From an uncultured Gammaproteobacteria bacterium (GTDB lineage Bacteria > Patescibacteriota > Patescibacteriia > UBA2196 > GWA2-42-15): a stretch of DNA of 64,000 nt. Each line of letters starts with the position of its first letter. The stretch's first letter is position 1. Below are positions 8,842-50,082 of this stretch, piece by piece. The position numbers and the translations under genes were made by a program. The DNA lies in NCBI GenBank assembly GCA_964573135.1, contig CAZNIO010000002.1:2535-66534 (forward strand). Reading direction: 5' to 3'. The notes below the pieces were generated by a model. That model was not told the DNA's origin. It worked only from the letters and a program-made list of their open reading frames with translations, and ran no database searches.

Positions 8842-10065
8842 ATGCTCAGGAAAAAAACACACATTATAATAACAGTTATACTACTAGCCCTTTTTTTTAC
8901 GCCAATTTTTTGCCAAGCTTTTGAATATACATCCCTAGACCACTACACCCGCTATTTCTATAACCGCTACTCCAAGCACTTTGATAACTTTGGCCTAAAA
9001 TATGCAAGCCCCACCTATGGTATCCAAAAACTCAAAAATCCAGAAACCTCTCGTGAATGGATATCCCTTGCCTCATACTATAAATACAGAAGCATCCGAG
9101 GTGATATCAAGGCCAAACAAGCACTCAAAGACGCCGTCCATCAATCCTACCTAGCCAGCTTAAACAAATTGCCTCACGCTCAATCGTTTCAAGATGCTGA
9201 AAGCTATTTTCTAATACTTCAAGTATTTGAAAATGACCCAAACCTTTTTAACGAATTTGAACAAAAAAGAATAATTTACCAAATCAAAAAATATATCGAA
9301 CCAGGCATTAAGGCGAATGATACAGAAAATAGGAGCTTGGTATCAGCAGCTCATTGGCAATACATTGTCAATCTACTACATACCAAAAACATATTAAACC
9401 AAAGTCAAAAAGAATATTTTGATAAATTAATAAAAATAAAGATTGATACAGCTATTAATAGTTGCATCAACCAAGATTACTGGTATTTTGAAAATAATTG
9501 GAAAGATTTTTCACCTCACTATCATACAGTATCAGCCTTTATGCTAATGATCTATGGAGATCTAACCCAGCAAGACAAATACCTAGACATCTCCCAAGGA
9601 ATGTACTACAATATTAAAAAGGTGTCTTTCAAAAACGGTATGGTGGAAGCCCATCTTGGCAGAAGACCCCTAGGACTGGGAGCCCAGTTCTATCTTATGC
9701 AAGGACTACTTGGTAAATATTTTGATGACCCAGATTATAGTGTCTATCTGGCATATGCCAAAGGCCACAGATTCTTCTCAGATAAACAACACCCCGACCG
9801 CTTGGAATTCCACTCAACTATAGAAAATTCAGATCCTCAATTCCATGATGATTACGCATTTTCAGATAAAGCAGAGCTTGCCTTAACTATACCCAAATTA
9901 CAAAATGTAAATTTCAGTTCTAAATACTATTTTGACGACCCAATCCAACAATCAAGTGATGATAGTTATAATATAAAAAATACAGGTAATAAAATAATAT
10001 TTAATAAAATAAAAAACGTTCTTGGAAGCTATGGGAATTGGTCCCATATTTACAATTTAAAATAA
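8842..10065 (+). CDS. Hypothetical secreted protein (signal peptide)
   Basis: The N-terminus MLRKKTHIIITVILLALFFTPIFCQA resembles a signal peptide. No recognisable catalytic motif. Confidence 0.45.
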   Translation: MLRKKTHIIITVILLALFFTPIFCQAFEYTSLDHYTRYFYNRYSKHFDNFGLKYASPTYGIQKLKNPETSREWISLASYYKYRSIRGDIKAKQALKDAVHQSYLASLNKLPHAQSFQDAESYFLILQVFENDPNLFNEFEQKRIIYQIKKYIEPGIKANDTENRSLVSAAHWQYIVNLLHTKNILNQSQKEYFDKLIKIKIDTAINSCINQDYWYFENNWKDFSPHYHTVSAFMLMIYGDLTQQDKYLDISQGMYYNIKKVSFKNGMVEAHLGRRPLGLGAQFYLMQGLLGKYFDDPDYSVYLAYAKGHRFFSDKQHPDRLEFHSTIENSDPQFHDDYAFSDKAELALTIPKLQNVNFSSKYYFDDPIQQSSDDSYNIKNTGNKIIFNKIKNVLGSYGNWSHIYNLK

Positions 10066-10071
10066 TACCAT

Positions 10072-10384
10072 GCCGAGGTAGCTCAGTGGTAGAGCACAGG
10101 ACTGAATTTTCGGTCCATCACAAAGCAATTTGTGATCGCAAACTGGGTGAATTCGGGGAAACCTACGGTCATATGTATGACTATGGCAATCCCGAGCCAA
10201 GCTCTAGAGGGTATAAGTTCTAGAGAAGGTGTAGAGACTAACAGGTGAGTCCCAACAATAACCCTGTATAAGCGCCCAGCCCCTAATATTCAATTAGGGT
10301 GATGAGATAGTCCGATCCTAAAGGAAACTTTAGTTAACACACAGGAAAATCCTGGTGTCGAGAGTTCGATTCTCTCCCTCGGCA
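10072..10384 (+). tRNA. tRNA-Phe (anticodon GAA) interrupted by a group I intron. Exons are 10072..10103 and 10345..10384; no CCA is encoded.
   Basis: The exons join to GCCGAGGUAGCUCAGUGGUAGAGCACAGGACU|GAAAAUCCUGGUGUCGAGAGUUCGAUUCUCUCCCUCGGCA, a complete cloverleaf with close similarity to bacterial tRNA-Phe. The acceptor stem GCCGAGG/CCTCGGC pairs across the intron. Confidence 0.8.
10104..10344 (+). ncRNA. Group I self-splicing intron (241 nt) in the anticodon loop of tRNA-Phe, between U33 and G34
   Basis: The core closely resembles Azoarcus/cyanobacterial tRNA group I introns (GAATTCGGGGAAACCTACGG, TATGGCAATCCCGAGCCAAGC, GAAGGTGTAGAGACTAACAGGTGAG). P1 forms between exon GGACU and intron GGUCC with a U.G at the 5' splice site. 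The last intron nucleotide is G. Confidence 0.8.
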
Positions 10385-10899
10385 AATCGCGGGATGTGGT
10401 ATAATGGTAGTACGTATGCTTTGGGAGCATATAGCGGGAGTTCGATTCTCCCCATCCCGAATTTAAAACTCTGACTTTGCGTCAGGGTTTTAAAATACCC
10501 CAATAAAAAAGATGATGTACTATTTAATATACACCATCTTATAATCTTATTTCTTGCCCTCTTTTCTATCCAAGCCCAATTGCGCTCGTTATCTGCTTTA
10601 ATAATTTGTGGATAATGAGCGCAGACATCGGAATTTAATAAAACACTGGCTCGCATTTTATACTTATCCAATAAATCCATTATCCGCCAAAGTCCCACCC
10701 GCACACCATAATCTCGCCAGCCATAATTTAACGGATCTGGATCCAAATTGGCAGTGCCAGAAAAAATACTTGTGGCCGGCTTACCGAGCTCATAATCCTC
10801 AATATTCAATCCAATATAAACAGCGAACCCTTCCCCGTTCGGCCATTTAATTTTTGGCCGTTCAATGATAGGGCTATAATTAAAAAGTTCATTTTCCAT
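10330..10899 (-). pseudogene. 3'-truncated PuuE/polysaccharide-deacetylase-like gene. Only about 115 N-terminal residues are homologous; the reading frame then runs through the tRNA-Pro/Phe genes.
   Basis: ERPKIKWPNGEGFAVYIGLNIEDYE...YGVRVGLWRIMDLL...NSDVCAHYPQIIKA parallels the PuuE N-terminus (KWPG.ARIALSFVLNYEEGGE...YGSRAGVWRLL...NPEVIRA). The catalytic GHE..SHG segment is lost and the 3' part overlaps tRNAs. Confidence 0.45.
10390..10460 (+). tRNA. tRNA-Pro (anticodon UGG)
   Basis: C1-G72 acceptor (CGGGATG/CATCCCG), anticodon loop TTTGGGA with G37, T-arm GGGAG/TTCGATT/CTCCC. It starts 5 nt after tRNA-Phe. Confidence 0.85.
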
Positions 10900-19013: not shown

Positions 19014-21263
19014 TTATCTTTCTTCTTCCTCATCAAGCTCTTCTTCTTCTGCTACTTCTTCCTCTTGAGTCTCTTCTTCTATTTTGTCTTCTGCATATTC
19101 ATCTATAATCTCATTATCACCAATTTCTTCGGAGCTAGCAACTAAAATCTCTCTCGGTTTAGATCCTTCTTGAGGACCAATTGCCCCCTCCTCTTCCAAT
19201 AAATCCAAAATTCTTGCAGCGCGTGCATAACCAATTCTTAATCTTCTCTGTAAATATGAAGCCGAAGCCTTGCCTGCTTTAATAACTAAATCTCTGGCTT
19301 CATCTAAAAACTCATCCGAATCTTCATCCTCAAAACCAGAAGATACTCTAACTCCAGTAGCACCACCAGTAGCTCTTTCAACTACTGCCTCATCATAATC
19401 AGATTCAGCTGATTTACGTAAATAACCCACCACATTCTCAATATCTTCATCACTCGCATATGCTCCCTGCAAACGCTTTGGTTTTGAAATTTCTGCTGAA
19501 GTGAAAAGCATGTCTCCTCTACCAAGCAACTTCTCAGCTCCAGACACATCAAGTATTGTACGTGAATCCGTCAAAGACGCCACCGAAAACGCAATCCTAC
19601 CAGGTATATTTGCTTTTATAAGACCAGTGATAATATCAACTGATGGTCGCTGAGTAGCCAAAACTAAGTGGATTCCTACAGCTCGAGACATTTGTGCCAA
19701 ACGTATAATCGCTGCCTCTACTTCAGCAGAGGCCACTGACATCAAATCTGCCAACTCATCGATCATAAATACCAAATAAGGCATCTTCTCCCTTGGATGA
19801 GCTGTGTTATAACTTTGAATATTTCTCTTACCAGCATTTGATAAAACATGAAAACGCCTCTCCATCTCAGAGATTGTCCATTTTAATGCATTAATTGTTT
19901 TTTTAATGTCCACAATCACCGGTGTCATCAAATGAGGAATATCATTATACCCAATCATTTCTACTCTCTTGGGATCAACCAAAATCATCTTTAATTCATC
20001 GGGCTGATTTTGATAAAGCAAAGATACAATAATGGAATTTAAACACACCGTTTTACCAGAATTAGTCGCACCCGCTACCAATAGATGAGGTAACCTACTC
20101 AAATCGGTAATCCACGGCTTACCAGCCACATCTTGCCCCAAAACAATAGTTAAATTAGATTTTCTTGTTTTAAATTCTTTCGATTCCAAAACCTGTCGCA
20201 AAGGCACCACTGCAATTTTCTTATTAGGCACCTCAATACCTACCAGCGCCTTACCAGGAATTGGCGCCTCAATACGAATCGGATGTGCTGCCAAAGCTAA
20301 AGATAAATCATTACCCAAACCCACTATACGCGATAATTTAACACCATCCATGGGACGAAAAGTATATTGAGTGACGGTTGGGCCAATAGATATCTCTCCC
20401 ATCTCAACCTCAATCCCAAAATTATTAAGTGTTTTTTTAATAATCTCTTGGCACAAGGTAGTATCTCTGGCTGTCGGCTCACCTGCTTTCGCATTTAAAA
20501 GATCAAGCGGAATATCAATCCGTGGATATTTCTTTCTTCTTTTTTTGGGGCGATCCTCATCCCCCTCTTCTTCATCTTCTTCCTCCTCTTCCTCCTCTTC
20601 TTCCTCATCACTATCAGCCAATTCTCTTCGGTCAAATTCAACTTCACCCTCTTCTTCCTCCTCATCCTCTTCTTCAGAATCTTCTCCTTTCCCCCTTACT
20701 CTCTTATTCACAAAATCTCCCATGCCTTGCCTTAAATTTTTTAAGGTAGCTCTTTCAATTAAGGATTCAAGCGTAGTATTAAACATAAGTAACACACCAA
20801 TCACCAAAAAGGCAAACATTACTACCATCGAAGCCCAACGACCCATCATCGCAAAAAATGGATAGCTTATAGCAAAACCAACATAACCCCCACCCATGCC
20901 ATCTTTTAAAATTTCCTTATACGATTCAGGATCCTGTACCAAATGAAAAAATCCAGAATAACCCAAAATTAAAAGCATCACTCCAATCCAATTAATCATT
21001 CTAAAAGAATGTTTGGTATTTTTTAAATTCAAATATCCAGCAGCTAAGAGCACCAAAGGAAATATCCAAAAACCCCAACCAAATACCAATTCCAAAACCC
21101 TATACATCCATCTACCAAATCCACCCGCCAAATCAAAAATAGACAGTAAGCTTATAAGAGCTACTGCGAAGATTATAACAATAAAAATACCTTTTTTAGT
21201 TGAATTCTCTACTTCCAAAAAATCACCAGAAAACCCAAATTTTCTCTTTTTCCTTCTTCCCAT
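19014..21263 (-). CDS. ftsK: DNA translocase FtsK/SpoIIIE with a long acidic low-complexity linker
   Basis: N-terminal TM helices, Walker A VAGATNSGKTVCLNSII, Walker B LVFMIDELADLM, C-terminal gamma wHTH (ASASYLQRRLRIGYARAARILDLLEEEG). The poly-Glu/Asp insert is coding low complexity. Confidence 0.9.
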   Translation of the reverse strand: MGRRKKRKFGFSGDFLEVENSTKKGIFIVIIFAVALISLLSIFDLAGGFGRWMYRVLELVFGWGFWIFPLVLLAAGYLNLKNTKHSFRMINWIGVMLLILGYSGFFHLVQDPESYKEILKDGMGGGYVGFAISYPFFAMMGRWASMVVMFAFLVIGVLLMFNTTLESLIERATLKNLRQGMGDFVNKRVRGKGEDSEEEDEEEEEGEVEFDRRELADSDEEEEEEEEEEDEEEGDEDRPKKRRKKYPRIDIPLDLLNAKAGEPTARDTTLCQEIIKKTLNNFGIEVEMGEISIGPTVTQYTFRPMDGVKLSRIVGLGNDLSLALAAHPIRIEAPIPGKALVGIEVPNKKIAVVPLRQVLESKEFKTRKSNLTIVLGQDVAGKPWITDLSRLPHLLVAGATNSGKTVCLNSIIVSLLYQNQPDELKMILVDPKRVEMIGYNDIPHLMTPVIVDIKKTINALKWTISEMERRFHVLSNAGKRNIQSYNTAHPREKMPYLVFMIDELADLMSVASAEVEAAIIRLAQMSRAVGIHLVLATQRPSVDIITGLIKANIPGRIAFSVASLTDSRTILDVSGAEKLLGRGDMLFTSAEISKPKRLQGAYASDEDIENVVGYLRKSAESDYDEAVVERATGGATGVRVSSGFEDEDSDEFLDEARDLVIKAGKASASYLQRRLRIGYARAARILDLLEEEGAIGPQEGSKPREILVASSEEIGDNEIIDEYAEDKIEEETQEEEVAEEEELDEEEER

Positions 21264-21584
21264 AATATTAGTGAAAAAATTAAGTATAACTGTATTTTAT
21301 CATCTTATCCCTATAGCTACAATAGCTACAACATATCCAGTAGGTTATCTAGGCTAGCGAAGTGATTACTACTAACTTTAGTATAAATTTGTATAGTTTC
21401 TAAACCTAATAATTACTAAATATATCCAATATCCTAGTTTACAGTCCGCGATAAATTTTTATTGATTTGCATATTCTAGGAATCTTCAGTTATAATAAAG
21501 ACAAGAATTAAAAATAATAACATAAAGTATAGATAACATACAAATTACAAGCATTATCAATCAAAAAGTTTAGATATACGCTAG

Positions 21585-21825
21585 TTGTCAAAAATATCGT
21601 TCGCTCCACTCCGCTACCGCTACGTTACACTCCTCAATTTTTGACAATGCCGACGAATAGGCTTGGGCCTTCTAAGAGCTCACGATTCTTCTGACAACAA
21701 CGGATAAGCGGCTCGCAACGACCCTACTGGCTTCCCTGCTCGGCCCAAACCTAACTCAGTCCTTTCCTTAGTCTGAAAGCCTTCGGCTTTCACCCTGCGG
21801 AAAGTCCTTCGTTAGGCTTCGCCTA
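21585..21825 (+). repeat. Copy A of a ~231-241-nt GC-rich structured repeat. It contains an 11-bp inverted repeat (TTGTCAAAAAT...ATTTTTGACAA), a UUCG hairpin and a 69-nt attC-like palindrome (ACCTAAC...GTTAGGC) at 21749..21817.
   Basis: ~99% identical to copy A' (3 substitutions and one 10-nt indel). It lies immediately upstream of the ORF at 21884. Confidence 0.75.
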
Positions 21826-21883
21826 TCCGTCGGCATTATTCGAAATATATTTTTATTTTTACTTACCATTTAACTAAAATTTT

Positions 21884-22321
21884 ATGTCAGATCAACTTCC
21901 AGACGAAAATTCAAAACGTTTTATTGCTGTTCTCAACAAGAAAGTTGAAACAGGCAAACTTATGAACGCACTTGGGCACATTACGGCTGGTCTTGCGGGT
22001 GGCTCTAATAAAACCGACGAAATGTGCTTTTTACAATATCAGGATAAAGAGGGCGGTAGTCATCCAAATATTTCTCACTTTCCGTTTATTGTACTCAAAG
22101 TTGACAACTCTAATAAAATTCGCAAAGTTCGCAACGAAGCCATCGACCGAAACATACCTTTCTCTGATTTCACGAGTACTATGACTGTTGGCACTTCTCA
22201 AGAACAACAGGACGCCACCCGCAAGACCTCCGAGGAAGAATTAGAATATTACGCTATTGTCTTGTTTGGTGGAACTGAAGAGCTGAAAGAATTCACAGGC
22301 AAGTTCTCTTTATACCAGTAA
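21884..22321 (+). CDS. Hypothetical protein, possibly DUF2000-like
   Basis: 145 aa, no motif I can assign with certainty. It is flanked by the A and A' repeats. Confidence 0.45.
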   Translation: MSDQLPDENSKRFIAVLNKKVETGKLMNALGHITAGLAGGSNKTDEMCFLQYQDKEGGSHPNISHFPFIVLKVDNSNKIRKVRNEAIDRNIPFSDFTSTMTVGTSQEQQDATRKTSEEELEYYAIVLFGGTEELKEFTGKFSLYQ

Positions 22322-22471
22322 AAATAAAAATAAACTCAAACCCCGCTGCGCTCTCCTCCTTGCAGTCGTCGGGTCGCACAACACCGTATATCTGGAAAAT
22401 GGCCTCAGCTCGGCATTTTCTCGAATTTACAACTCATTGCATTCATTGTAAACTCCAGATATCCCGATACA

Positions 22472-22702
22472 TTGTCAAAAATATCGTTCGCTCCACTCCG
22501 CTACCGCTACGTTACACTCCTCAATTTTTGACAACGCCGACGAATAGGCTTGGGCCTTCTAAGAGCTCACGATTCAACGGATAAGCGGCTCGCAACGACC
22601 CTACTGGCTTCCCTGCTCGGCCCAAGCCTAACTCAGTCCTTTCCTTAGTCTGAAAGCCTTCGGCTTTCACCCTGCGGAAAATCCTTCGTTAGGCTTCGCC
22701 TA
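22472..22702 (+). repeat. Copy A' of the structured repeat. The attC-like 69-nt palindrome GCCTAAC-N55-GTTAGGC lies at 22626..22694.
   Basis: Direct comparison with copy A. It ends 71 nt upstream of the HD-domain gene. Confidence 0.75.
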
Positions 22703-22772
22703 CCCATCCCATTAGCTTAAATTACCCAAAACCATTTTAATCTTTTCTATTTAATTATAATTTTTCATAAAA

Positions 22773-23417
22773 ATGAACAAAAAACAAATCATAAATCAAA
22801 CGGCTAAGCACGTCAAAATGAAACTAACCGGCGAAGGTTCTGGTCATGACTGGTGGCATGTTTATCGTGTCTGGAAAAATGCTGTCCATATTGGTAAACA
22901 TGAGAATGCAGATTTATTTGTTGTTGAACTTGCCGCCCTGCTTCACGATATCGCTGACTGGAAATTTCATAGTAATGCAGGTCCAAAATTGGCTCGCGAG
23001 TGGTTAAAAAAATTATCTGTTGATGAAAACGTAATTTCTCATGTTTGCCAAATCGTTCGAGACGCTTCATTCAAGGGCGCTAGCGTCATGACCAGAATAA
23101 AAACCAAGGAGGGTATGGTTGTTCAAGATGCCGATCGTTTAGACGCAATTGGCGCAATTGGAATCGGTAGAACCTTCGCCTACGGTGGCAGTCAAGGTCG
23201 CGAGATGTATAATCCCAATATTAAAACTAAAAAATATAAATCGCCTGATCAGTTTAAAAACAGCAGGAGTCCCACAATAAATCATTTTTATGAAAAATTA
23301 CTACTCTTGAAAGAATTAATGAATACCACGACTGCAAAAAAAATTGCCAGGAAACGACATAAATTTATGGGGAAGTTTCTAGACAAATTCTTTCAAGAGT
23401 GGGAAGGTAAAGATTAA
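22773..23417 (+). CDS. HD-domain phosphohydrolase
   Basis: H...HD motif (WWHVYRVWKNAVHIG...LAALLHDIADWKF) and downstream conserved D. Confidence 0.8.
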   Translation: MNKKQIINQTAKHVKMKLTGEGSGHDWWHVYRVWKNAVHIGKHENADLFVVELAALLHDIADWKFHSNAGPKLAREWLKKLSVDENVISHVCQIVRDASFKGASVMTRIKTKEGMVVQDADRLDAIGAIGIGRTFAYGGSQGREMYNPNIKTKKYKSPDQFKNSRSPTINHFYEKLLLLKELMNTTTAKKIARKRHKFMGKFLDKFFQEWEGKD

Positions 23418-23624
23418 AATGGTTTTGGACAACTCAAGCCACGCTGCGCTCTCACCAGCCCTTTTATTTTTTTAACAATAATGATGGCGGGCTCAGGTCA
23501 GCTAACACCGAGTATACGGTTCAGGCCTCAGCTCGGCCTTCACCCATATTTGCCTCCGCTACGCTATAACAAGCATCGTATACACGCATACATTATTCGA
23601 AATTTATTTTAAAAATTATTTTTT

Positions 23625-24011
23625 ATGAGAAAAGACATAGTCGCATTAATACTTGAAAAAGACGGATTATTTTTAATAGAAGAAAGGAAGAGTACAAATA
23701 CGTTAGATCCTGATAAGTTTGTATTTCCTGGCGGGCATCTTCATGTAGATGAAAAACTAGAGGATGCTATTAAACGTAAAACGTTTGAAGAATTACACAT
23801 TAAACTGATTAATTTCAAATTAGTATATGTGAAAAATTTTGACGGACCAGAAGAAAAACAAAAGCTTCACTGGTATTGGTGCGATAATTTTACTGGTAAA
23901 ATACAAAATAATGAAGCTGAACAATTAATTTGGATAAATGCAACTGAAATAGAAAGACTATCCTACCAAGTTAGCAAAGACGCATTCAAGGCCATGCTAA
24001 ACCAAAAATAA
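23625..24011 (+). CDS. NUDIX hydrolase
   Basis: Nudix-box-like region (GGHLHVDEKLEDAIKRKTFEELHI) in a 128-aa protein. Confidence 0.75.
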   Translation: MRKDIVALILEKDGLFLIEERKSTNTLDPDKFVFPGGHLHVDEKLEDAIKRKTFEELHIKLINFKLVYVKNFDGPEEKQKLHWYWCDNFTGKIQNNEAEQLIWINATEIERLSYQVSKDAFKAMLNQK

Positions 24012-24100
24012 CTTTTAAAATAAACATCGCCCAACAACGCGATAAGCGACTCCAGAAATTTACATTAATTTATATTTTTTATTCTTTAAACTAAAAACAT

Positions 24101-24379
24101 ATGATCAATTTAAAACGAAAAATTCCTACAAAAGTTTGGATCCCCCTCTTCGCATTCATTCTCTTGCTACCAATTATTATTGCCACTATTACAGTAGTAT
24201 TACATTGTCAAAATACTGAATTACCATTTTGGGGAGATGAACATTCAGTTGAAACTGGATACTTTATACTTTTCGCAATTACAACATACTATCTTTTCTA
24301 TATAGTCGCTCCCATACTTGTCATCTATTTTCTAATCTGGTCAATAAAATTTTGGAGAAATAAAAAGAACTCTGAATAA
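24101..24379 (+). CDS. Hypothetical small membrane protein
   Basis: Two to three predicted TM helices. No domain. Confidence 0.35.
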   Translation: MINLKRKIPTKVWIPLFAFILLLPIIIATITVVLHCQNTELPFWGDEHSVETGYFILFAITTYYLFYIVAPILVIYFLIWSIKFWRNKKNSE

Positions 24380-24529
24380 TATTGAAAATCACAAATTTGT
24401 TCTTGTCTGCTCCATCCAAATCCTGCTACTAGCATCAATATTTAATTCATTTAAACATCCGCATTCTGAATTCAACGAATGTGTCATTCGACACGGCTAG
24501 ACTTCAAACATACGGATCCGTTATTCGAA

Positions 24530-24886
24530 ATGGCCACAAATTATTATGAAAAACAAATCAATAAATTTACTGACCAATGGTCTCCCAAAATCATCACCCA
24601 AATAAACAACAATCATTTTAAATTAGCGAGAGTCGAATGAAACTTTAAGTGGCATGATCACAAAAACACCGATGAAGTATTCATGGTATTAGAGGGCCAA
24701 TTACGAATTGATTATCGAGACAGCAGTATTATTTTGAATAAAGGTGAGCTACCTGTGGTAAAAAAAGGAATTGAACATAAACCTTTCGCCACCAAAAAGT
24801 GCAAAATTTTACTTATAGAGCCAGCTGGAACAGTAAATACTGGCGATGTAGGTGGAGACCAAATAGCTCAAAATGAATGGATTTAA
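24530..24886 (+). pseudogene. Cupin-domain gene interrupted by an in-frame TGA (nonsense at 24638..24640)
   Basis: MATNYYEKQINKFTDQWSPKIITQINNNHFKLARVE-TGA-NFKWHDHKNTDEVFMVLEGQLRI... lies in one frame. The cupin motifs (wH.H...dE.f.vleG, P.G.eH) are split by the stop. TGA is a genuine stop elsewhere in this window. Confidence 0.5.
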
Positions 24887-25044
24887 TAATTTGTGAATTA
24901 TACTCAATAACACCCGACATTAAAACAACCGAATCATCAATAAATATTCTAACACCACTGCCACTCCTAAAACAAACTCTTTAATCCACTTGCCAAACCC
25001 ACACAAATACTTTAAATTAAAGATAGAGGACATTAGCCAGTTAT

Positions 25045-25968
25045 ATGCAAGAAATATTACTCTCCAACCTACCCAAAGCCCATGGCCAAGTAAAAGGCTG
25101 CTGGTTTAAGGGCTACCCCATACACAAAGGCTTCACTCAAGCCAGTCTTAACTATGCCACAATCTATGCCAATCAAAAAAAAATACTCCCCAAACAAAGT
25201 GCCCTTAAAAAAGATTTTGAATTTTTTAAAAAAACTCTACGCTCAGCTGGTTTTAAAATCCATTCTGTCCCCTTTCCCAACGAGCTAAATCAAATAGATA
25301 ATTTACGCCATGATGCCATTTTTATTAGAGACGTGGGTTTTATGTATAAAAATCTATGGATAAAATCTAACTTTAGCTGCCGTCATCGCCAGCCAGAAGC
25401 AGATGCCTATGCCCCCATCATTGCTAAAAAATTTAAAAAAAGAATAATCAACCTACCCAAAGGAGCCTACCTGGAATTTGGAGACACTCTCTATGCAAAA
25501 ACCAAGAGTGGTGTTTTTTATTTCGGTGGACTTTCAAGGTCTAATAAAAAAGGACATGACTTTGTCAAAAAAATAATAAAACCAGATTTCTATTGCCTTA
25601 TAAAATCAGAAGGTTATCACCTTGATACAATTTTTGCCCCAATTATAAACAAAGATAATCAGCTCGTCGCATTTATTGTCAACAAGAAACGCTTTAATAC
25701 CAAGTGTTTAGATAAAATAAAAAAACTGGGGATTCCAATAATTAATATAAAACCAATCGACTCCTCAGGCATTCCAGGCAAACTTGGTAATTATGCCATC
25801 AACGCCCTCGTCGCCCCAGGAATTATGGTCAGCTGTCACAAATTTGAAACTCTAGGAGTAGAAAAAAAATTAAAAGAACTGGGTATTAAACACCATGTCA
25901 CCCCTCTCACATATTTCAGATTTGCAGGAGGGTCTTGCCACTGTCTGGCCAATGAAATTAACAAATAA
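25045..25968 (+). CDS. Amidinotransferase-superfamily enzyme (DDAH / arginine deiminase-like)
   Basis: Characteristic C-terminal catalytic Cys context (FAGGSCHCLANEI) and an internal GYHLDT segment. Confidence 0.55.
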   Translation: MQEILLSNLPKAHGQVKGCWFKGYPIHKGFTQASLNYATIYANQKKILPKQSALKKDFEFFKKTLRSAGFKIHSVPFPNELNQIDNLRHDAIFIRDVGFMYKNLWIKSNFSCRHRQPEADAYAPIIAKKFKKRIINLPKGAYLEFGDTLYAKTKSGVFYFGGLSRSNKKGHDFVKKIIKPDFYCLIKSEGYHLDTIFAPIINKDNQLVAFIVNKKRFNTKCLDKIKKLGIPIINIKPIDSSGIPGKLGNYAINALVAPGIMVSCHKFETLGVEKKLKELGIKHHVTPLTYFRFAGGSCHCLANEINK

Positions 25969-25980
25969 TTAATATAATCA

Positions 25981-26011
25981 AAAATCCGGGAATCAAGATT
26001 CCCGGATTTTT
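25981..26011. terminator. Bidirectional terminator hairpin between the amidinotransferase-like gene and rpoC
   Basis: AAAATCCGGGA-ATCAAGAT-TCCCGGATTTT. Confidence 0.55.
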
Positions 26012-26029
26012 AAATTACTTTAAAACAGC

Positions 26030-29000
26030 TTATTTACTCTCTGTCTTCTTCTCTTCGCCTTCCTTTTTAAAGCCAGTTCCACTTGGAATAAGCCGACCAA
26101 TAATTACATTCTCCTTAAGTCCGCGCAAATGATCAATTTTGCCAGTCACAGCTGCATCAATTAATACCCTGGTTGTTTCCTGGAAAGACGCTGCTGACAA
26201 GAATGATTGGGTAGATAAAGATGATTTAGTAATACCCAATAAGACTGGTAGGCCATATGCTCCTTGCTTACCCTCATTTTTTGCCTTAAGATTTTCCTCA
26301 ATTAAATCGTTCCGATCAACGATCTCTCCTGGTGATAGCATTGTATCCCCGGAAAACTCAATCATAAGCTTTGAAAACATCTGTTTAACTATAATCTCAA
26401 TATGTTTATTATTCAAAGGTTGCCCTTGTGAAGAATAGACATATTGTATTTCTTGTATAACATACTCCTGTACAGCTTTTTGATCCTTCAGCTTATAAAG
26501 TTCTCCCAAATTAACTGATCCTTCAATTAATTGATCTCCTTTAGCAATCAAGTCCCCATTCTTTACCCAAACCTCTCTACCTCTTGGCACAACAGTCTCA
26601 ATTTCCGCATCTTTTTCATTAGTAACCACAATCACCTTTAAATCATCATCTATCTTCTCTACTTTTATCTTACCGTCTTGCGGAGATTTTATCTTTCTTG
26701 GTTTTTCCATTAAAAATTCACCCTTCTTTACCGAAGATCCTTCCTTTTTAAGTAAATTCTTTATATCCTTGCTTCTTATATAAATCTTTTCTTTCTTTAC
26801 TTCTTTACCAATAATTTTAAGTGTTTTCTCGCGTGTTTCCTCATCATAGCTAATCTGAATCTGCCCATCAATTGGCGCAATAAAAGCTGCTTTTTTAACT
26901 GGCCTAGATTCAAAAATCTCTTCAACCCTTGGTAAACCCTGAGTAATATCCCCGCCACCAGCTACACCACCTGTATGAAATGTTCTCATTGTCAGCTGTG
27001 TACCAGGCTCACCAATACTTTGTGCTGCTATAATACCAACGGCAACTCCTAATTTTACAAGGTCATTCCGTCCTAAATCCCAACCATAACACTTAGCACA
27101 CAAACCTCGCTTAGATAAACAAGTAAATATAGAACGAATATTGACCTGGTCAATACTCTTGTCTTTATCAATTTCTCGAGCCTCTTTGTGCCCAATAACT
27201 TCTCCTTTTTTAACTACTACTCTACCACGCTTGGTTTTAACAGCAGATAATACAACTCTGCCTTTAATTCTTTTAATAAAATCTCTTAAACCCTCACGGA
27301 ACACAACAACACCTTCCTTATCACCACAGTCCTCTTCGCTCACAATCACGTCCTGAGCCACATCAATCAAACGCCTAGTCAAATATCCAGCGTTAGCCGT
27401 TCTAAGAGCCGTATCTGATAATCCTTTCCTAGCACCATGAGTTGTAATAAAATACTCAAGCACATCCATGCCTTCTTTTAAAGATGCTTTAACTGGCAAC
27501 TCAATGGTTTCACCATTTGGGTTAGCCATCAGTCCTCTCATGCCCATCATTTGAGTAGTCTGACCCCAAGAACCACGTGCACCTGAATTCATCATTGAAA
27601 ATACAGCGCCATCTTTGGGTAATTTATCCTTACATAAATCGACAATCTTATCCTTGGCTCCTGCCCAAATTTCAATTATTTTACTATGTCGCTCATCATT
27701 GGTTAAAAATCCCTGACCGTACTGATCTTCCACTTCTTCAGCACTGGCTTCGGCCTCTTCAAAAACACTATGCTTCTCTGGCAAAGGGGGCAAATCAGCC
27801 ATACCCCAAGAAATGCCTGAGCGAGTGACATAAATCATTGATAATGATTTAATATCATTTAAAAATTGGACTGTTCTCTCTCTGCCATAAACTTCCATCA
27901 CCTCTTGAGCCAAAGATTTTAAACGACCCTTATCCACTAATTCATTTACAAAATTAATTTTCTCAGGAATAACCTCATTAAACACAATACGACCCATACT
28001 TGTATCGATAATCTTGCCATTAATCCTCACTTTAACCTTTTCTCGTAAATCAACCAAATCATTATCAAACACCTGCCTAGCTTCTTCAGTTGAAGAAAAC
28101 AGCCTTGTTTCTTCGTCCGCCTTTTCAAGAGCTATAAAAGTAAGGAAATAGCAACCTAACACAAAATCCTGTGCAGGTGTTACTGATGGATCTCCAGTTG
28201 CTGGTTTTAAAATATTTTTACTTGAAAGCATTATTTCAGCAGCTTCCTTGCGTGCCTGCTTGGTCAAAGGTACGTGTACAGCCATCTGGTCTCCATCAAA
28301 GTCAGCATTAAAAGGTGGGCACACCAAAGGATGCAATTGAATTGCCTTGCCTTCAATTAATATTGGTTTAAAAGCTTGAATACCCAAACGATGCAAGGTT
28401 GGAGCCCTATTTAGATAAACATATGAATCTTTAGTAATTTTCTCTAAAATATCCCACACCTCACCACGATCAGCCTCAATAAAACGATTAGCCGATCTCA
28501 CATTGTGGACATATTCTTTTTTAATAAGCTCTGCAATAATAAAGGGCTTAAATAACTCAAGGGCCATTCTCTTCGGTATACCACATTCATCAAATTTTAA
28601 GTGTGGACCGACTACAATTACACTTCTCCCAGAATAGTCAACTCTTTTACCGAGTAAATTCTGCCTAAACCTGCCTTGCTTACCTTTCAAAATGTCGGCC
28701 AAAGACTTAAGCATTCTTTTTTGCCCAGTTGAAGCTGTAACTGTTTTACCATGCCTGGCTGAATTATCAATCAGGGCATCAACCGCTTCCTGTAACATTC
28801 TCTTTTCATTACGACAAATAACTTCAGGAGCATTTAAATCAATCAATTTACGCAAACGATTATTTCTATTAATAACTCGTCTATATAAATCATTCAAATC
28901 AGATGTAGCAAAACGCCCACCGTCCAATTGCACCATTGGTCGCAAATCTGGTGGAATAACAGGAACAGTATCAAGGATCATCCACTCTGGTCTAATACTA

Positions 29001-29878
29001 TTTTTCTTCAAACTTTTTATAACCTTCAACCTCTTAATTAACTTGCGATAGCCACCACCGACAGTCTTTGTCATAGCAATTTCAATCTTCTTTATTTCTT
29101 CATCTAAATTAATATTTGAAAGTACATTACGGATGCTCTCTGCCCCAATACCCACCTCAAAAATATGGCCATATTTAAGTGACCAATCCTGATAAATACT
29201 TTCGGGAATAACTTTTAATTTTTTAATCTCACCCAATTCTTTCTTGGCTGTATCAAAGGCTTGAGTTAACTCTTTAAGCTCTTTTTCCTTGCCTTCATCT
29301 GCTTTTTTAATATCACTTTCTTTGCCTTTTTCATTTTTGTCCTTAACCTGTTTTACCCTATTAGCAAAATCTCCTTCAATTCTTTTTTTCTTCTGCTTAT
29401 ACTCATCTTTAATCTGCTCCAAAGTCTGCTCTTTTAATTCTTCATCTACATTTAATATTAAATAATCAGCAAAATAAATTACCTTTTCCAGCAATTGTGC
29501 TGAAATATCTAAAACCAAACCCAATTTGGAAGGGATACCGCGCAAAAACCAAATGTGTGAAACCGGCACAACTAAATCAATGTGGCCCATTCTTTCACGT
29601 CTAACCAAGGATCGAGTTACTTCAACTCCACACTTATCACAAATTATTCCCTTATACCTAACTCTTTTATACTTACCGCAATAACATTCCCAGTCTTTAG
29701 TCGGACCAAAAATCTTTTCGCAAAACAGCCCGTCTTTCTCAGGTTTTTGTGTTCTGTAGTTTATGGTTTCTGGCTTTAGTACTTCGCCATGTGACCACGC
29801 ATGCATAACATCAGGTGAAGCAACCTTCAATCTAATGCTATCAAACTCGAGTGTTGGTTTTTGAAACTCATTTTGCAT
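26030..29878 (-). CDS. rpoC: DNA-directed RNA polymerase subunit beta'
   Basis: Zn-binding CYCGKYKRVRYKGIICDKCGVEV, NADFDGDQMAVHVPL catalytic motif. 1282 aa. Confidence 0.97.
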   Translation of the reverse strand: MQNEFQKPTLEFDSIRLKVASPDVMHAWSHGEVLKPETINYRTQKPEKDGLFCEKIFGPTKDWECYCGKYKRVRYKGIICDKCGVEVTRSLVRRERMGHIDLVVPVSHIWFLRGIPSKLGLVLDISAQLLEKVIYFADYLILNVDEELKEQTLEQIKDEYKQKKKRIEGDFANRVKQVKDKNEKGKESDIKKADEGKEKELKELTQAFDTAKKELGEIKKLKVIPESIYQDWSLKYGHIFEVGIGAESIRNVLSNINLDEEIKKIEIAMTKTVGGGYRKLIKRLKVIKSLKKNSIRPEWMILDTVPVIPPDLRPMVQLDGGRFATSDLNDLYRRVINRNNRLRKLIDLNAPEVICRNEKRMLQEAVDALIDNSARHGKTVTASTGQKRMLKSLADILKGKQGRFRQNLLGKRVDYSGRSVIVVGPHLKFDECGIPKRMALELFKPFIIAELIKKEYVHNVRSANRFIEADRGEVWDILEKITKDSYVYLNRAPTLHRLGIQAFKPILIEGKAIQLHPLVCPPFNADFDGDQMAVHVPLTKQARKEAAEIMLSSKNILKPATGDPSVTPAQDFVLGCYFLTFIALEKADEETRLFSSTEEARQVFDNDLVDLREKVKVRINGKIIDTSMGRIVFNEVIPEKINFVNELVDKGRLKSLAQEVMEVYGRERTVQFLNDIKSLSMIYVTRSGISWGMADLPPLPEKHSVFEEAEASAEEVEDQYGQGFLTNDERHSKIIEIWAGAKDKIVDLCKDKLPKDGAVFSMMNSGARGSWGQTTQMMGMRGLMANPNGETIELPVKASLKEGMDVLEYFITTHGARKGLSDTALRTANAGYLTRRLIDVAQDVIVSEEDCGDKEGVVVFREGLRDFIKRIKGRVVLSAVKTKRGRVVVKKGEVIGHKEAREIDKDKSIDQVNIRSIFTCLSKRGLCAKCYGWDLGRNDLVKLGVAVGIIAAQSIGEPGTQLTMRTFHTGGVAGGGDITQGLPRVEEIFESRPVKKAAFIAPIDGQIQISYDEETREKTLKIIGKEVKKEKIYIRSKDIKNLLKKEGSSVKKGEFLMEKPRKIKSPQDGKIKVEKIDDDLKVIVVTNEKDAEIETVVPRGREVWVKNGDLIAKGDQLIEGSVNLGELYKLKDQKAVQEYVIQEIQYVYSSQGQPLNNKHIEIIVKQMFSKLMIEFSGDTMLSPGEIVDRNDLIEENLKAKNEGKQGAYGLPVLLGITKSSLSTQSFLSAASFQETTRVLIDAAVTGKIDHLRGLKENVIIGRLIPSGTGFKKEGEEKKTESK

Positions 29879-49868: not shown

Positions 49869-49923
49869 ATACTTCTAATAATTTAAAAACACCCCAATGG
49901 GGTGTTTTTAAATTATTAGAATT

Positions 49924-49996
49924 TACGCCCACTAGGGCTCGAACCTAGGACCTTATCCTTAAGAGGGATCTGCTCTACCAGCTGAGCTATGGGCGC
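49924..49996 (-). tRNA. tRNA-Lys (anticodon CUU)
   Basis: Minus strand GCGCCCATAGCTCAGCTGGTAGAGCAGATCCCTCTTAAGGATAAGGTCCTAGGTTCGAGCCCTAGTGGGCGTA. Anticodon loop CTCTTAA; G1.U72 acceptor pair. Confidence 0.75.
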
Positions 49997-50008
49997 ACAG
50001 TTTCTATT

Positions 50009-50082
50009 TGCGCCTGGAGGGACTCGAACCCCCAACCTTCTGGTCCGAAGCCAGACGCTCTATCCAGTTGAGCTACAAGCGC
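50009..50082 (-). tRNA. tRNA-Arg (anticodon UCG)
   Basis: Minus strand GCGCTTGTAGCTCAACTGGATAGAGCGTCTGGCTTCGGACCAGAAGGTTGGGGGTTCGAGTCCCTCCAGGCGCA. Anticodon stem TCTGG/CCAGA, loop CTTCGGA. Confidence 0.75.

Follow-up and report, generated by a model that had tools for sequence, protein, structure and literature searches.

The island between rpoC and ftsK in the window (the whole 64-kb stretch of DNA analysed here) is, with a probability that we put at about 0.85, the remnant of an integron-like gene-capture platform in a Patescibacteria (Kuenenbacteria-related) genome, the cassette array of which is decaying. The initial annotation of this DNA had suggested a cassette array with decaying recombination sites, a suggestion now supported by gene order, attI homology, attC-like palindromes and the graded decay of these sites. 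According to the model that we propose, intact relatives would carry a gene for a 270-aa tyrosine recombinase and then, on the other strand, a conserved attI-like site, past which co-oriented, unrelated cassettes would follow, the intervals between them being devoid of a consensus promoter. Each cassette would close with an imperfect palindrome of 60-200 nt, built as R''-L''-loop-L'-R', in which the R'' core ends in AAC and R' reads RTTRNNY followed by GAAAT, and the gain and loss of cassettes would take place at the junction immediately before the TT of R'. To judge from covariation and from the analogy with integrons, it is probably the folded single strand of the palindrome that is recognised. 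In the window, the recombinase gene would have been cut to about 25 codons and the attI-like site would have survived; the ORF-less A1 and A2 and the DUF2000, HD, NUDIX and 92-aa cassettes would be the units that can still be delimited, with site quality dropping along the array to the point where a cupin pseudogene and a 307-aa gene are followed by no detectable site. Such an array would now be static unless a recombinase comes from elsewhere in the genome.

Insertion between rpoC and ftsK

The island spans 4.77 kb (21264-26029) and is an insertion. Gene order, which the initial annotation had proposed to compare with relatives, is not conserved: rpoC almost directly abuts ftsK, ending within a few hundred nucleotides of it, in at least eight Patescibacteria relatives, and none of the six island genes lies in the rpoC-ftsK gap of those eight. 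All six genes are on the + strand and their Pfam families are unrelated. Sigma-70-like sites do not exceed those in shuffled sequence (12 versus 14.9), and a scan for such sites, whose coverage does not extend to CPR promoters, finds no consensus promoter in 21264-21584. In integrons, a Pc promoter within intI or attI drives the array, and here a promoter presumably lies in the attI region. At the junction between the island and the rpoC end, a terminator scan places a bidirectional terminator-like hairpin (25978-26013; 14-16 pairs, both strands).

Spacer motifs as probable cassette boundaries

The motifs that had first drawn attention to the spacers are, within the 64 kb, confined to the island and to the + strand. 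TTATTCGAAAT, described as lying upstream of three start codons, indeed has exactly three copies in the window (21836, 23593 and 24521, all on the + strand), where shuffles lead one to expect 0.13 and none of 100 shuffles reaches three; the third copy overlaps the ATG of the cupin gene at 24530. Both copies of the 22-mer ACTCAARCCMCGCTGCGCTCTC after two stop codons are also real, with the first coordinate shifted one base to the right (22334-22355 and 23432-23453, lying 12 and 14 nt past the stops; about 0 expected by chance), and the same two spacers have an additional block in common, GGCCTCAGCTCGGC, at 22401 and 23524. The fragment of the A core seen after the NUDIX gene, GATAAGCGRCTC, is shared by the two A copies and the stretch 24041-24052; shuffles lead one to expect 0 copies. 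Measured against shuffled-sequence controls, the spacer similarities are thus significant (0-0.13 copies expected). Aligning the six spacers with one another proved uninformative, large indels setting the elements apart.

These motifs can be given a place in the architecture outlined above. TTATTCGAAAT is the R' box together with the start of the next cassette, that is, the 5' boundary of a cassette (consensus GTTRTYNGAAAT); AACGGATAAGCGGCTC is an L'' box; and ACTCAARCCMCGCTGCGCTCTC is part of a hairpin module, which in one subfamily of sites immediately precedes R''. The proposal that the motifs are relics of a repeat "A" does not stand, A being an ORF-less (empty) cassette and not a generic parent repeat. 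Nor do the motifs occupy every intergenic gap, as had been stated, since no site is detectable after the cupin gene (24890-25044) or after the 307-aa gene.

Prediction of attC-like sites

The decisive search was a two-part scan combining position-specific scoring (PSSM) with pairing, a heuristic of our own trained on 11 sites from relatives only. It replaced a covariance model, R1, with a short loop, the top match of which was a terminator palindrome at 49869 and which recovered sites only partially, missing B1 and B2 as full sites. Over 128 kb (both strands of the 64 kb), the scan returns only three full attC-like sites, 21693-21841, 22377-22477 and 23501-23598, all of them inside the island and scoring 58-59 versus 11.4 for the next best. 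Non-training loci score at most about 25 over 1.42 Mb, and in L109, which lay outside the training set, eight sites score 41-84, all on the strand divergent from the recombinase of that locus. The site model also picks out single halves, namely a 3' half without a partner at 24520 and, weakly, a 5' half at 24036.

The 11 sites from relatives have a common stem of 19 pairs, in which 80.8% of the cells are paired versus 66.7% in shuffles and 35 cells are compensatory versus 12.4; slid controls reach 17-46%. In five of five sites, folding of the bottom strand is as good as that of the top strand or better, by 0-4.5 kcal/mol, and it is presumably the bottom strand that is used; in integrons, attC recombines as a folded bottom strand, with resolution by replication. 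attC sites are usually described as imperfect palindromes, R''-L''-loop-L'-R', whose cores read RYYYAAC and GTTRRRY and in which structure, not sequence, is conserved. The sites found here fit this description with variant cores, R'' reading YAYAAC and R' reading RTTRNNY. Four of the six R' boxes in the window begin with A, and this A-for-G exchange (ATT) is probably a trait of the lineage, not decay, because it is common to a related array that still carries its recombinase gene. Decay along the array is graded: A1 and B1 are full, B2 has kept its sequence and lost its stem from the predicted fold, and A2, IG3 and IG4 are left with half-sites or weaker.

Neither A nor B belongs to a family in Rfam at gathering or permissive thresholds. 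Searches by blastn and nhmmer found no match to A or B in 80 ftsK loci from GTDB species, and exact patterns of the B motif and the A hairpin gave no match in viral contigs.

Proposed cassettes of the window

All units lie on the + strand. Cassette 1 (21585-21835) is A1, the repeat "A" of the initial annotation, and has no ORF. Within it, R' with the adjoining AAAAT is paired to ATTTT and R'' (TGACAAT, 21641-21647), leaving a loop of 42 nt. An attC-like site comes next (21693-21841, score 57.9), consisting of L'' GCCGACGAATAGGC or an inner AACGGATAAGCGG, followed by L' GCCTATCCGTCGGC and R' ATTATTC (21835-21841). The inverted repeat I8 joins 21637-21662 to 21821-21846 (26 nt, 81%). Readings of A as an RNA gene, an intron fragment or an IS200/IS605-type end were rejected, as A starts exactly at the attI crossover in L095, L098 and L091, with R'', L'', L' and R' boxes; in L095, the A1-like architecture comes directly after attI. 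Cassette 2 (21836-22471) carries a DUF2000 gene (21884-22321; PF09391, E 3e-34), an outer stem, I16, of 16 nt at 100% (21848-21863 with 22317-22332) and the hairpin module that holds the first 22-mer. It ends in site B1 (22377-22477; R'' GCACAAC, R' ATTGTCA; score 58.0), the half-sites of which score 19.8 and 22.1 versus null maxima of 18.0 and 17.9, and which shares 86% identity with L098 site a, where a different gene precedes it. DUF2000 was rejected as an obligate cassette gene, since it is found among ordinary genes without sites in Woesebacteria, Gracilibacteria and other contigs.

Cassette 3 (22472-22711) is A2, a second ORF-less copy, 94.6% identical to A1 (blastn, 241 nt), and has a deletion of 10 nt; its 3' half, CGCCTACCCATCCC followed by ATTAGCT, is degenerate. 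The 5' half scores just 3.5 and no 3' half scores above 0. Two contigs in which the end of B1 is joined to A1 were considered as an excised circle, but an assembly path crossing the first 61 nt, which A1 and A2 have in common, would look just the same. Cassette 4 (22712-23592) carries an HD-domain gene (22773-23417; PF01966), the second 22-mer and an outer stem, I2, of 31 nt at 87% (22715-22745 with 23409-23439; 20 nt exact, E 2e-5). It closes with B2 (23501-23598; R'' AGCTAAC, R' ATTATTC), which scores 59.3, with 29.0 for its 3' half, and the L stem of which is absent from the predicted single-stranded DNA fold (z about -0.2 to -0.4).

Cassette 5 (23593-24064, 3' boundary approximate) carries the NUDIX gene (23625-24011; PF00293) within an outer stem, I7, of 26 nt at 88% (23598-23623 with 24004-24029). 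Its truncated attC relic (24025-24070) has CATCG, R'' CCCAAC, L'' AACGCGATAAGCG, no matching L' and a possible R' ATTAATT; model R1 matches 24022-24075 at E 0.011, and the 5' half scores 9.0, inside the null range. Cassette 6 (24065-24520, 5' boundary approximate) holds a 92-aa ORF (24101-24379) that has no Pfam match and that may, from its hydrophobic sequence, encode a membrane protein. Its orphan 3' half-site, made up of L' at 24504-24519 and R' GTTATTC at 24520-24526, scores 24.8 versus a null maximum of 17.9; no 5' half in this gap scores above 0, and R1 matches 24499-24531 at E 0.24. Cassette-specific outer stems also occur in the relatives L100 and L098.

The cupin gene (24521-24889; Pfam Cupin_2) starts at the cassette boundary and contains an in-frame TGA (24638-24640), which aligns with a Gly that is invariant in nine homologues and is one mutation from GGA. 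The gene is probably a pseudogene, and its TGA may stem either from a code-25 donor or from a single GGA-to-TGA mutation. The half-site scan finds nothing after it. The distal end of the island, which lies within the 4.77 kb that have no counterpart in relatives, is taken by the 307-aa gene (25045-25968), with neither a Pfam match nor a half-site. The gene names given initially hold for DUF2000, HD and NUDIX (Pfam) and for the cupin gene with its in-frame TGA; the label "amidinotransferase-like" for the 307-aa gene is unconfirmed.

Primary site and recombinase relic

The attI-like primary site (21510-21584, + strand) contains two direct repeats, AAAGTATAGATAAC at 21524-21537 and AAAGTTTAGATATA at 21565-21578, and its crossover presumably falls between G21584 and T21585. 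Its identity to the sequence that follows the 270-aa recombinase gene in Kuenenbacteria contigs is about 88%; contig by contig, the interval from the recombinase start codon to the first cassette matches it at 84-91% in L093, L094, L095, L096 (the same as L010), L097, L099 and L100. These contigs are identical up to A|GTT and differ completely immediately past it; in Kuenenbacteria contigs, an identical AACCA|GTT junction is followed by four different sequences. In an integron, cassettes insert at an attI site next to intI, and by its homology to the Kuenenbacteria site the stretch in the window would be such a site.

On the opposite strand, at 21368-21433, lies what appears to be the C-terminal end of a tyrosine recombinase, about 25 codons long, with two stops and one 3-codon gap. 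In a tblastn comparison, it matches residues 236-260 of the L010 recombinase as DIGYI, the two stops, LLG, the gap and LETIQIYTKVSS, with 12 of 25 positions identical; a search of the whole window gives an E-value of 0.9, and one restricted to the 501-nt spacer gives 0.001. At the DNA level, 21375-21403 aligns locally to nucleotides 746-773 of the recombinase gene with a score of 36 versus a maximum of 32 in 300 shuffles, and the position and strand of the relic relative to ftsK agree with L010. Besides the relic, about 700 nt of the recombinase gene have been deleted. Since the 64 kb contain no recombinase gene, nor any homologue of one, we do not claim activity here, and the array is presumably inactive at present.

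Platforms in related genomes

Within one Kuenenbacteria population, the first cassette varies: attI is followed by X, Y and Z in L100, by Y in L097, by Z in L093 and by W in L096/L010. L098 has an intact recombinase and the same attI, interrupted by an IS, followed by a truncated A cassette (98.6% identical), then a different cassette and a B1-type site (86% identity); L091 has the same truncated A and then DUF2000, so that L091 and L098 do not share the cassette that comes next. The units are co-oriented, mostly promoterless, unrelated and variably present among relatives, as cassettes are. In cassette Y, the bases past GTT read TTGTGC in one context and TTATAC in another, a difference not expected if the crossover were strictly G|TT.

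Alternative explanations

A chance origin of the motif matches in AT-rich spacers could be argued from the shortness of some of them (11-14 nt, with single blastn E-values of 0.003-0.09) and from the definition of the patterns on the data themselves. We regard this reading as refuted: shuffles leave next to no room for such copies, the matches are colinear, strand-specific and packed within 3 kb of the 64 kb, and they are found again with a model for which other genomes supplied the training sites. The repeats could also be structured RNA, terminators or REP/MITE-type elements, spread or kept for transcript processing and unconnected with DNA recombination; the predicted RNA fold of A1 is strong (z -6.05), the inverted repeats 5' and 3' of each ORF could pair within a transcript, and no copy lies outside the island. 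This we hold to be very improbable, in view of the missing Rfam match, the position of the elements exactly where related contigs switch to unrelated sequence, their association, in at least five independent platforms, with a conserved primary site and a gene for a recombinase, and a strain variant that tolerates a 183-nt deletion of A1.

More weight attaches to the possibility, unlikely in our judgement though less so than the preceding ones, that the recombinase is a host XerA-type chromosome-dimer resolvase and "attI" its dif site, at which IMEX-like elements exploiting Xer have been stacked, with no integron lineage involved. The relatives' recombinases score 231 and 221 bits on the NCBIfam XerA model (cutoff 220), the only model whose cutoff they reach, versus 211 and 198 bits, split into two stretches, on the integron-integrase model TIGR02249 (cutoff 265). 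They are about 270 aa long. Aligned to IntI4 (2a3v), they skip chain residues 201-241, and these 41 missing residues correspond to the IntI-specific additional domain of VchIntIA; a recombinase without this domain that reaches only the XerA cutoff therefore makes an Xer-type mechanism conceivable. The family also has at least 6848 homologues at E<=1e-40, as would a housekeeping gene, and both in L010 and at the relic in the window the gene adjoins ftsK, the Xer partner. Against this reading, however, the best match among solved structures is IntI4 (160.9 bits versus 149.6 for XerA), GC skew is negative throughout the 64 kb with no switch at the island or anywhere else, platforms adjoin different genes (ftsK, lepA, thrS, glycosyltransferases), and the arrays, in which 5-10 unrelated single-gene units share one orientation and each unit has a structured site, follow the pattern of integrons and not that of known IMEXs.

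Relation to known systems and implications

Read as an integron-like remnant, the island resembles sedentary chromosomal integrons in that the relatives' tyrosine recombinase gene is divergent from the attI site, in its array of co-oriented, unrelated cassettes, each ended by an imperfect palindrome with AAC and GTT cores of which the structure and not the sequence is conserved, and in the arrival of new cassettes at the attI-proximal position. It differs from them in its host, a CPR bacterium, in a recombinase without the additional domain, in a palindrome that extends 16-58 bp past R'' and R', in the conserved GAAAT after R', and in an R' that often begins with A, not G, in the window and in L098. 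Because the palindrome runs beyond the crossover point, every ORF has an inverted repeat of its own on either side. A complete integron has an intI with the additional domain around patch III; of a recombinase gene, the window has no more than the relic of about 25 codons. Clusters of attC sites without an integron-integrase are known as CALIN (Cury et al. 2016, PMC4889954; IntegronFinder 2.0, PMC9024848), and the window, with its degraded array and no recombinase gene, is like them, with three full sites (at least two are required) within 2 kb and no integron-integrase nearby. As with archaeal integrons, the architecture is found outside the classical bacterial phyla in metagenome-assembled genomes, although the IntI-specific additional domain is retained in archaeal IntIs (Ghaly et al. 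2022, PMC9668308), unlike in the CPR recombinases here. The literature that we searched contained no report of integrons in CPR bacteria.

There are likenesses to Xer systems as well, in the short recombinase without the additional domain and in its gene lying beside its own site, twice beside ftsK. The CTX-phage-type IMEX uses a folded single-stranded attP, and here, too, two inverted half-sites could form a recombination substrate by folding; in Acinetobacter pdif modules, genes are bracketed by inverted sites, as they are here. Dif sites, however, are 28 bp long and, in systems of the XerA type, lie at the replication terminus, whereas the sites of the island are structured palindromes of 60-200 nt that accompany many single-gene units in one orientation, at a locus where the skew does not switch.

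Integrons are the classic gene-capture system of bacteria, defined by an integrase with a special additional domain that is regarded as necessary for attC recombination. We find an integron-type platform without that domain, comprising a recombinase, an attI-like site, structured sites and cassette turnover within a population, in ultra-small CPR bacteria. For the window itself, this amounts to the annotation of a dead or dying array in which all the non-coding motifs are accounted for. One could go further and speculate, at odds that we set slightly below even, that CPR/Patescibacteria carry a widespread, previously unrecognised integron lineage with a 270-aa IntI/XerA-like enzyme lacking the additional domain and with attC palindromes that bracket ORFs, of which the window would be a decayed member; this lineage could be a reduced integron or an intermediate between Xer systems and integrons. 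Tools that demand an IntI-specific profile would label all such platforms "CALIN" or miss them. If the CPR recombinase were shown to move cassettes, the additional domain would not be required for structure-specific cassette recombination, and the platform would, if real, provide a mechanism for the exchange of accessory genes among CPR lineages.

The island between ftsK and rpoC

Over positions 20000-27000, our ORF listing places six genes, all on the + strand, between ftsK (19014-21263, − strand) and rpoC (26030-29878, − strand). These are a DUF2000 gene (21884-22321; Pfam PF09391), an HD-domain gene (22773-23417; PF01966), a NUDIX gene (23625-24011; PF00293), a 92-aa ORF (24101-24379; no Pfam match), a cupin gene (24530-24886; Cupin_2) with an in-frame TGA at 24638, and a gene for a 307-aa protein (25045-25968; no Pfam match). 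A scan with FtsK against GTDB species genomes assigned the window to Patescibacteria, with Candidatus Kuenenbacteria as the best match (66% identity). In eight relatives' loci (L011, L012, L013, L015, L017, L019, L020 and L087), the end of rpoC lies a few hundred bases from the start of ftsK on the same strand, with none of the six genes between them, while the separation in the window is 4766 bases. By this comparison, the six-gene island is an insertion between ftsK and rpoC.

The cupin TGA (24638-24640) falls on a Gly position that is invariant across nine homologues (VEGDF). The gene may have acquired a nonsense mutation from GGA to TGA, or may have arrived as a cassette from a donor reading TGA as Gly (code 25); the host's own genes include long TGA-free ORFs. 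The DUF2000 protein (145 aa) is 75-88% identical across lineages named by their sources as Woesebacteria, Gracilibacteria, Peribacteraceae, Magasanikbacteria and Shapirobacteria (homologues P0003-P0120), unlike FtsK, for which other Patescibacteria mostly show 40-55% identity to the window's. Its gene is a cassette in the window and in the relative's contig L090, whereas in contigs L101-L106 its neighbours are ordinary genes. Elsewhere in the window, a full-length group I intron (10094-10334; Rfam, 85 bits, E 3e-20) lies just behind a 407-aa ORF ending at 10065, and a tRNA gene (10390-10460) starts about 55 nt beyond the intron.

Repeats and probable recombination sites

The initial annotation had described short motifs recurring in the gaps of this island, and these are real, confined to the + strand and restricted to the island: TTATTCGAAAT occurs three times against 0.13 expected, GATAAGCGRCTC three times against 0, and a 22-mer following two stop codons twice against 0, its first copy lying at 22334-22355, one base away from the position originally assigned. 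An additional shared block, GGCCTCAGCTCGGC, is present in two places, and the two copies of repeat A (21585-21825 and 22472-22702) are 94.6% identical. Each of the first three genes, moreover, is surrounded by an inverted repeat of its own that had gone unremarked: 21848-63 with 22317-32 around the DUF2000 gene (16 nt exact), 22715-45 with 23409-39 around the HD gene (31 nt at 87%, including 20 nt exact), and 23598-623 with 24004-29 around the NUDIX gene (26 nt at 88%).

We built a model of an attC-like site from the joined halves of 11 sites in relatives' loci L098, L090, L093 and L100, leaving out those of the window. In these 11 sites the proposed 19-pair stem is 80.8% paired, compared to 66.7% in shuffles, with 35 compensatory cells against 12.4; slid controls gave 17-46%. 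Since a covariance model with a shortened loop performed poorly on long loops, the scan scored the 5' and 3' halves, and the pairing between them, as separate terms. Across both strands of the 64 kb, this two-part scan found only three prominent full sites, all on the + strand and within the island: one in the first copy of repeat A, A1 (21693-21841, score 57.9), and one after each of the DUF2000 and HD genes, B1 (22377-22477, 58.0) and B2 (23501-23598, 59.3). The best remaining score was 11.4, outside the island, and non-training sequence in 1.42 Mb of other loci never scored above about 25. Relative to 40 Markov simulations of the window, 3' half-sites were found at 21835 (17.2), 22471 (22.1), 23592 (29.0) and 24520 (24.8; null maximum 17.9), and 5' half-sites at 21699 (21.7), 22383 (19.8), 23507 (15.3) and 24036 (9.0; null maximum 18.0). 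A perfect AT-rich palindrome at 49869-49925 (AAAAACACCCCA/TGGGGTGTTTTT), adjoining a tRNA pair (49924-50082), was ranked first by the covariance model; it resembles a bidirectional terminator and is a false positive.

In terms of the boxes of this palindrome (R'', L'', L', R'), TTATTCGAAAT is the cassette boundary consensus GTTRTYNGAAAT, the previously noted core of repeat A, AACGGATAAGCGGCTC, is an L'' box, and its look-alike after the NUDIX gene is likewise an L'' box, from a site that has been truncated. The 22-mer is part of a hairpin module just upstream of R'', whose core CGYTGCRCTYTC is also present in L098 and L090, in the latter downstream of the DUF2000 gene. This GC-rich module lies between stop codon and R'' in some cassettes of three platforms (window 22334-22376 and 23432-23500; L098 12259-12270; L090 6490-6501).

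Read with the model, the − strand at 21368-21433 holds a relic of a recombinase C-terminus, including the IYTKV tyrosine motif and positioned relative to ftsK as in L010, the closest relative. An attI-like site with two direct repeats (21510-21584) is followed by A1, an ORF-less cassette (21585-21835) ending in a long palindromic site, in which R' plus AAAAT pairs with ATTTT plus R'' and a 42-nt loop occupies the usual place of the ORF; locus L095 has an empty cassette of the same kind after its attI. Next are the DUF2000 cassette, which extends to 22471, another empty cassette (A2, ending at 22711) that is more degenerate than A1, and the HD cassette, which ends at 23592. The site of the NUDIX cassette beyond it is truncated, and the 92-aa cassette after that has a 3' half-site only. 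The start of the cupin gene coincides with a cassette boundary, and the half-site scan detected no recombination site downstream of the cupin or 307-aa gene.

Cassette turnover in related platforms

In L010 (also L096), a 270-aa tyrosine recombinase gene lies immediately upstream of ftsK, and the non-coding stretch past its start codon aligns with window 21510-21589. Used as an exact pattern against JGI metagenomes, this stretch retrieved eight contigs, six of them from a Kuenenbacteria population, identical up to ...TTTAGATATAAACCA and divergent afterwards: GTTGTCGGAAAT... in L093, GTTGTCTGAAAT... in L096, GTTGTGCGAAAT... in L097 and GTTATCGGAAAT... in L100. Further on, L100 carries cassettes X-Y-Z, while L097 starts with Y and L093 with Z. 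These variants differ in the presence or absence of cassettes at a single fixed position beside the recombinase gene. Cassette Y starts with GTTATACGAAAT after X (L100 1379-1390) and with GTTGTGCGAAAT after attI (L097 7589-7600); a strict G|TT crossover does not predict two starts, and exchange may thus take place over a broader stretch than in classical integrons.

In L098 the 270-aa recombinase gene is intact and adjoins lepA, and the attI is the same as that of the window, interrupted by an IS whose DDE transposase has 412 aa. Next comes a truncated A cassette that shares 98.6% identity with that of the window, and then five cassettes; their spacers form clear imperfect palindromes, ...CATCG-YAYAAC-L''...L'-AC-RTTRNNY-GAAAT. 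The first site is 86% identical to B1, although the preceding gene differs. L091 shares the IS and the truncated A, in both a 183-nt deletion between TAGT microhomologies, but next carries the DUF2000 cassette of the window (99.7% identity); what comes after the A relic thus varies between two platforms that otherwise match. The IS (L098 9984-11401; L091 1-1199) sits between the intact recombinase gene and its array, its rve-type transposase being intact in L098 and frameshifted in L091.

A third platform, L090, was identified via an 86% identical DUF2000 homologue; its recombinase shares 49% identity with that of L010, its sites have GCCTAAC...GTTAGGC cores, and its cassettes include DUF2000 and NUDIX. 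L109, which played no part in training and was identified via a recombinase 62% identical to that of L098, has eight sites (scores 41-84). All of them lie between co-oriented unrelated genes, on the strand that diverges from its recombinase gene.

Between B1 and the corresponding L098 site, a 13-nt loop hairpin flanked by GAAAAT/ATTTTC is exactly inverted (GCCTCAGCTCGGC, window 22402-22414; GCCGAGCTGAGGC, L098 12311-12323). In two short contigs, L006 and L007 (JGI 3300025586, 3300005932), the last 14-50 nt of B1 are fused directly to an A1 with A1-type SNPs, followed by DUF2000 and B1 into A2. This arrangement may stem from a tandem or an excised form, or the assembly may have walked through the first 61 nt, which are identical in A1 and A2.

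In every cassette of L100 and L098, a 25-58-nt inverted repeat spans from R' to the cassette's own R'', and the palindrome therefore extends beyond the crossover point. It brackets the ORF in the array, and would make one long hairpin if the cassette were circular. The three gene-flanking repeats of the window are this same feature.

Recombinase identity and decay

The main rival explanation is a Xer/dif system rather than an integron-like platform. The relatives' recombinases score above the NCBIfam XerA / 'integron integrase' cutoff (231 and 221 bits; cutoff 220) and below that of TIGR02249 (211 and 198 bits; cutoff 265). Among solved structures, Vibrio IntI4 (2a3v) matches them best, with a jump in the alignment from chain residue 200 to 242 that corresponds to the IntI additional domain; archaeal IntIs are stated to keep this domain (PMC9668308). 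Homologues of about 270 aa number at least 6848, the named ones largely from Patescibacteria, and several are labelled 'site-specific tyrosine recombinase/integron integrase' by NCBI. Against a Xer/dif system, GC skew is negative over the entire window, the platforms adjoin different genes, and the array pattern is that of integrons.

Folded as single-stranded DNA, the Kuenenbacteria site L093a reaches −20.4 (top) and −24.9 (bottom) kcal/mol (z −5.6, −6.4); of the window's sites, B1 reaches −12.0 and −14.1, and B2 −8.5 and −10.5 (z about −0.2 to −0.4), the L stem being absent from the predicted fold of B2. A2 and the gaps after the NUDIX gene and the 92-aa ORF retain half-sites or weaker, and the cupin gene carries a stop at an invariant Gly position. 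An A-for-G change at the first R' position, which mismatches as C·A on the top strand but pairs as G·T on the bottom strand, is shared with L098 and is thus probably a lineage trait.

The observation of recurring motifs is confirmed, and its interpretation as a cassette array with decaying recombination sites is supported. Cassette arrays of this kind in CPR (Patescibacteria) were not reported in the literature searched in full text, which included papers on archaeal integrons (PMC9668308), IntegronFinder 2.0 (PMC9024848), attC taxonomy and permafrost; as this coverage is incomplete, their novelty is probable rather than established. The element in the window is a degraded representative of an integron-like family, set apart from classical integrons by its recombinase and by how far its palindromes extend.
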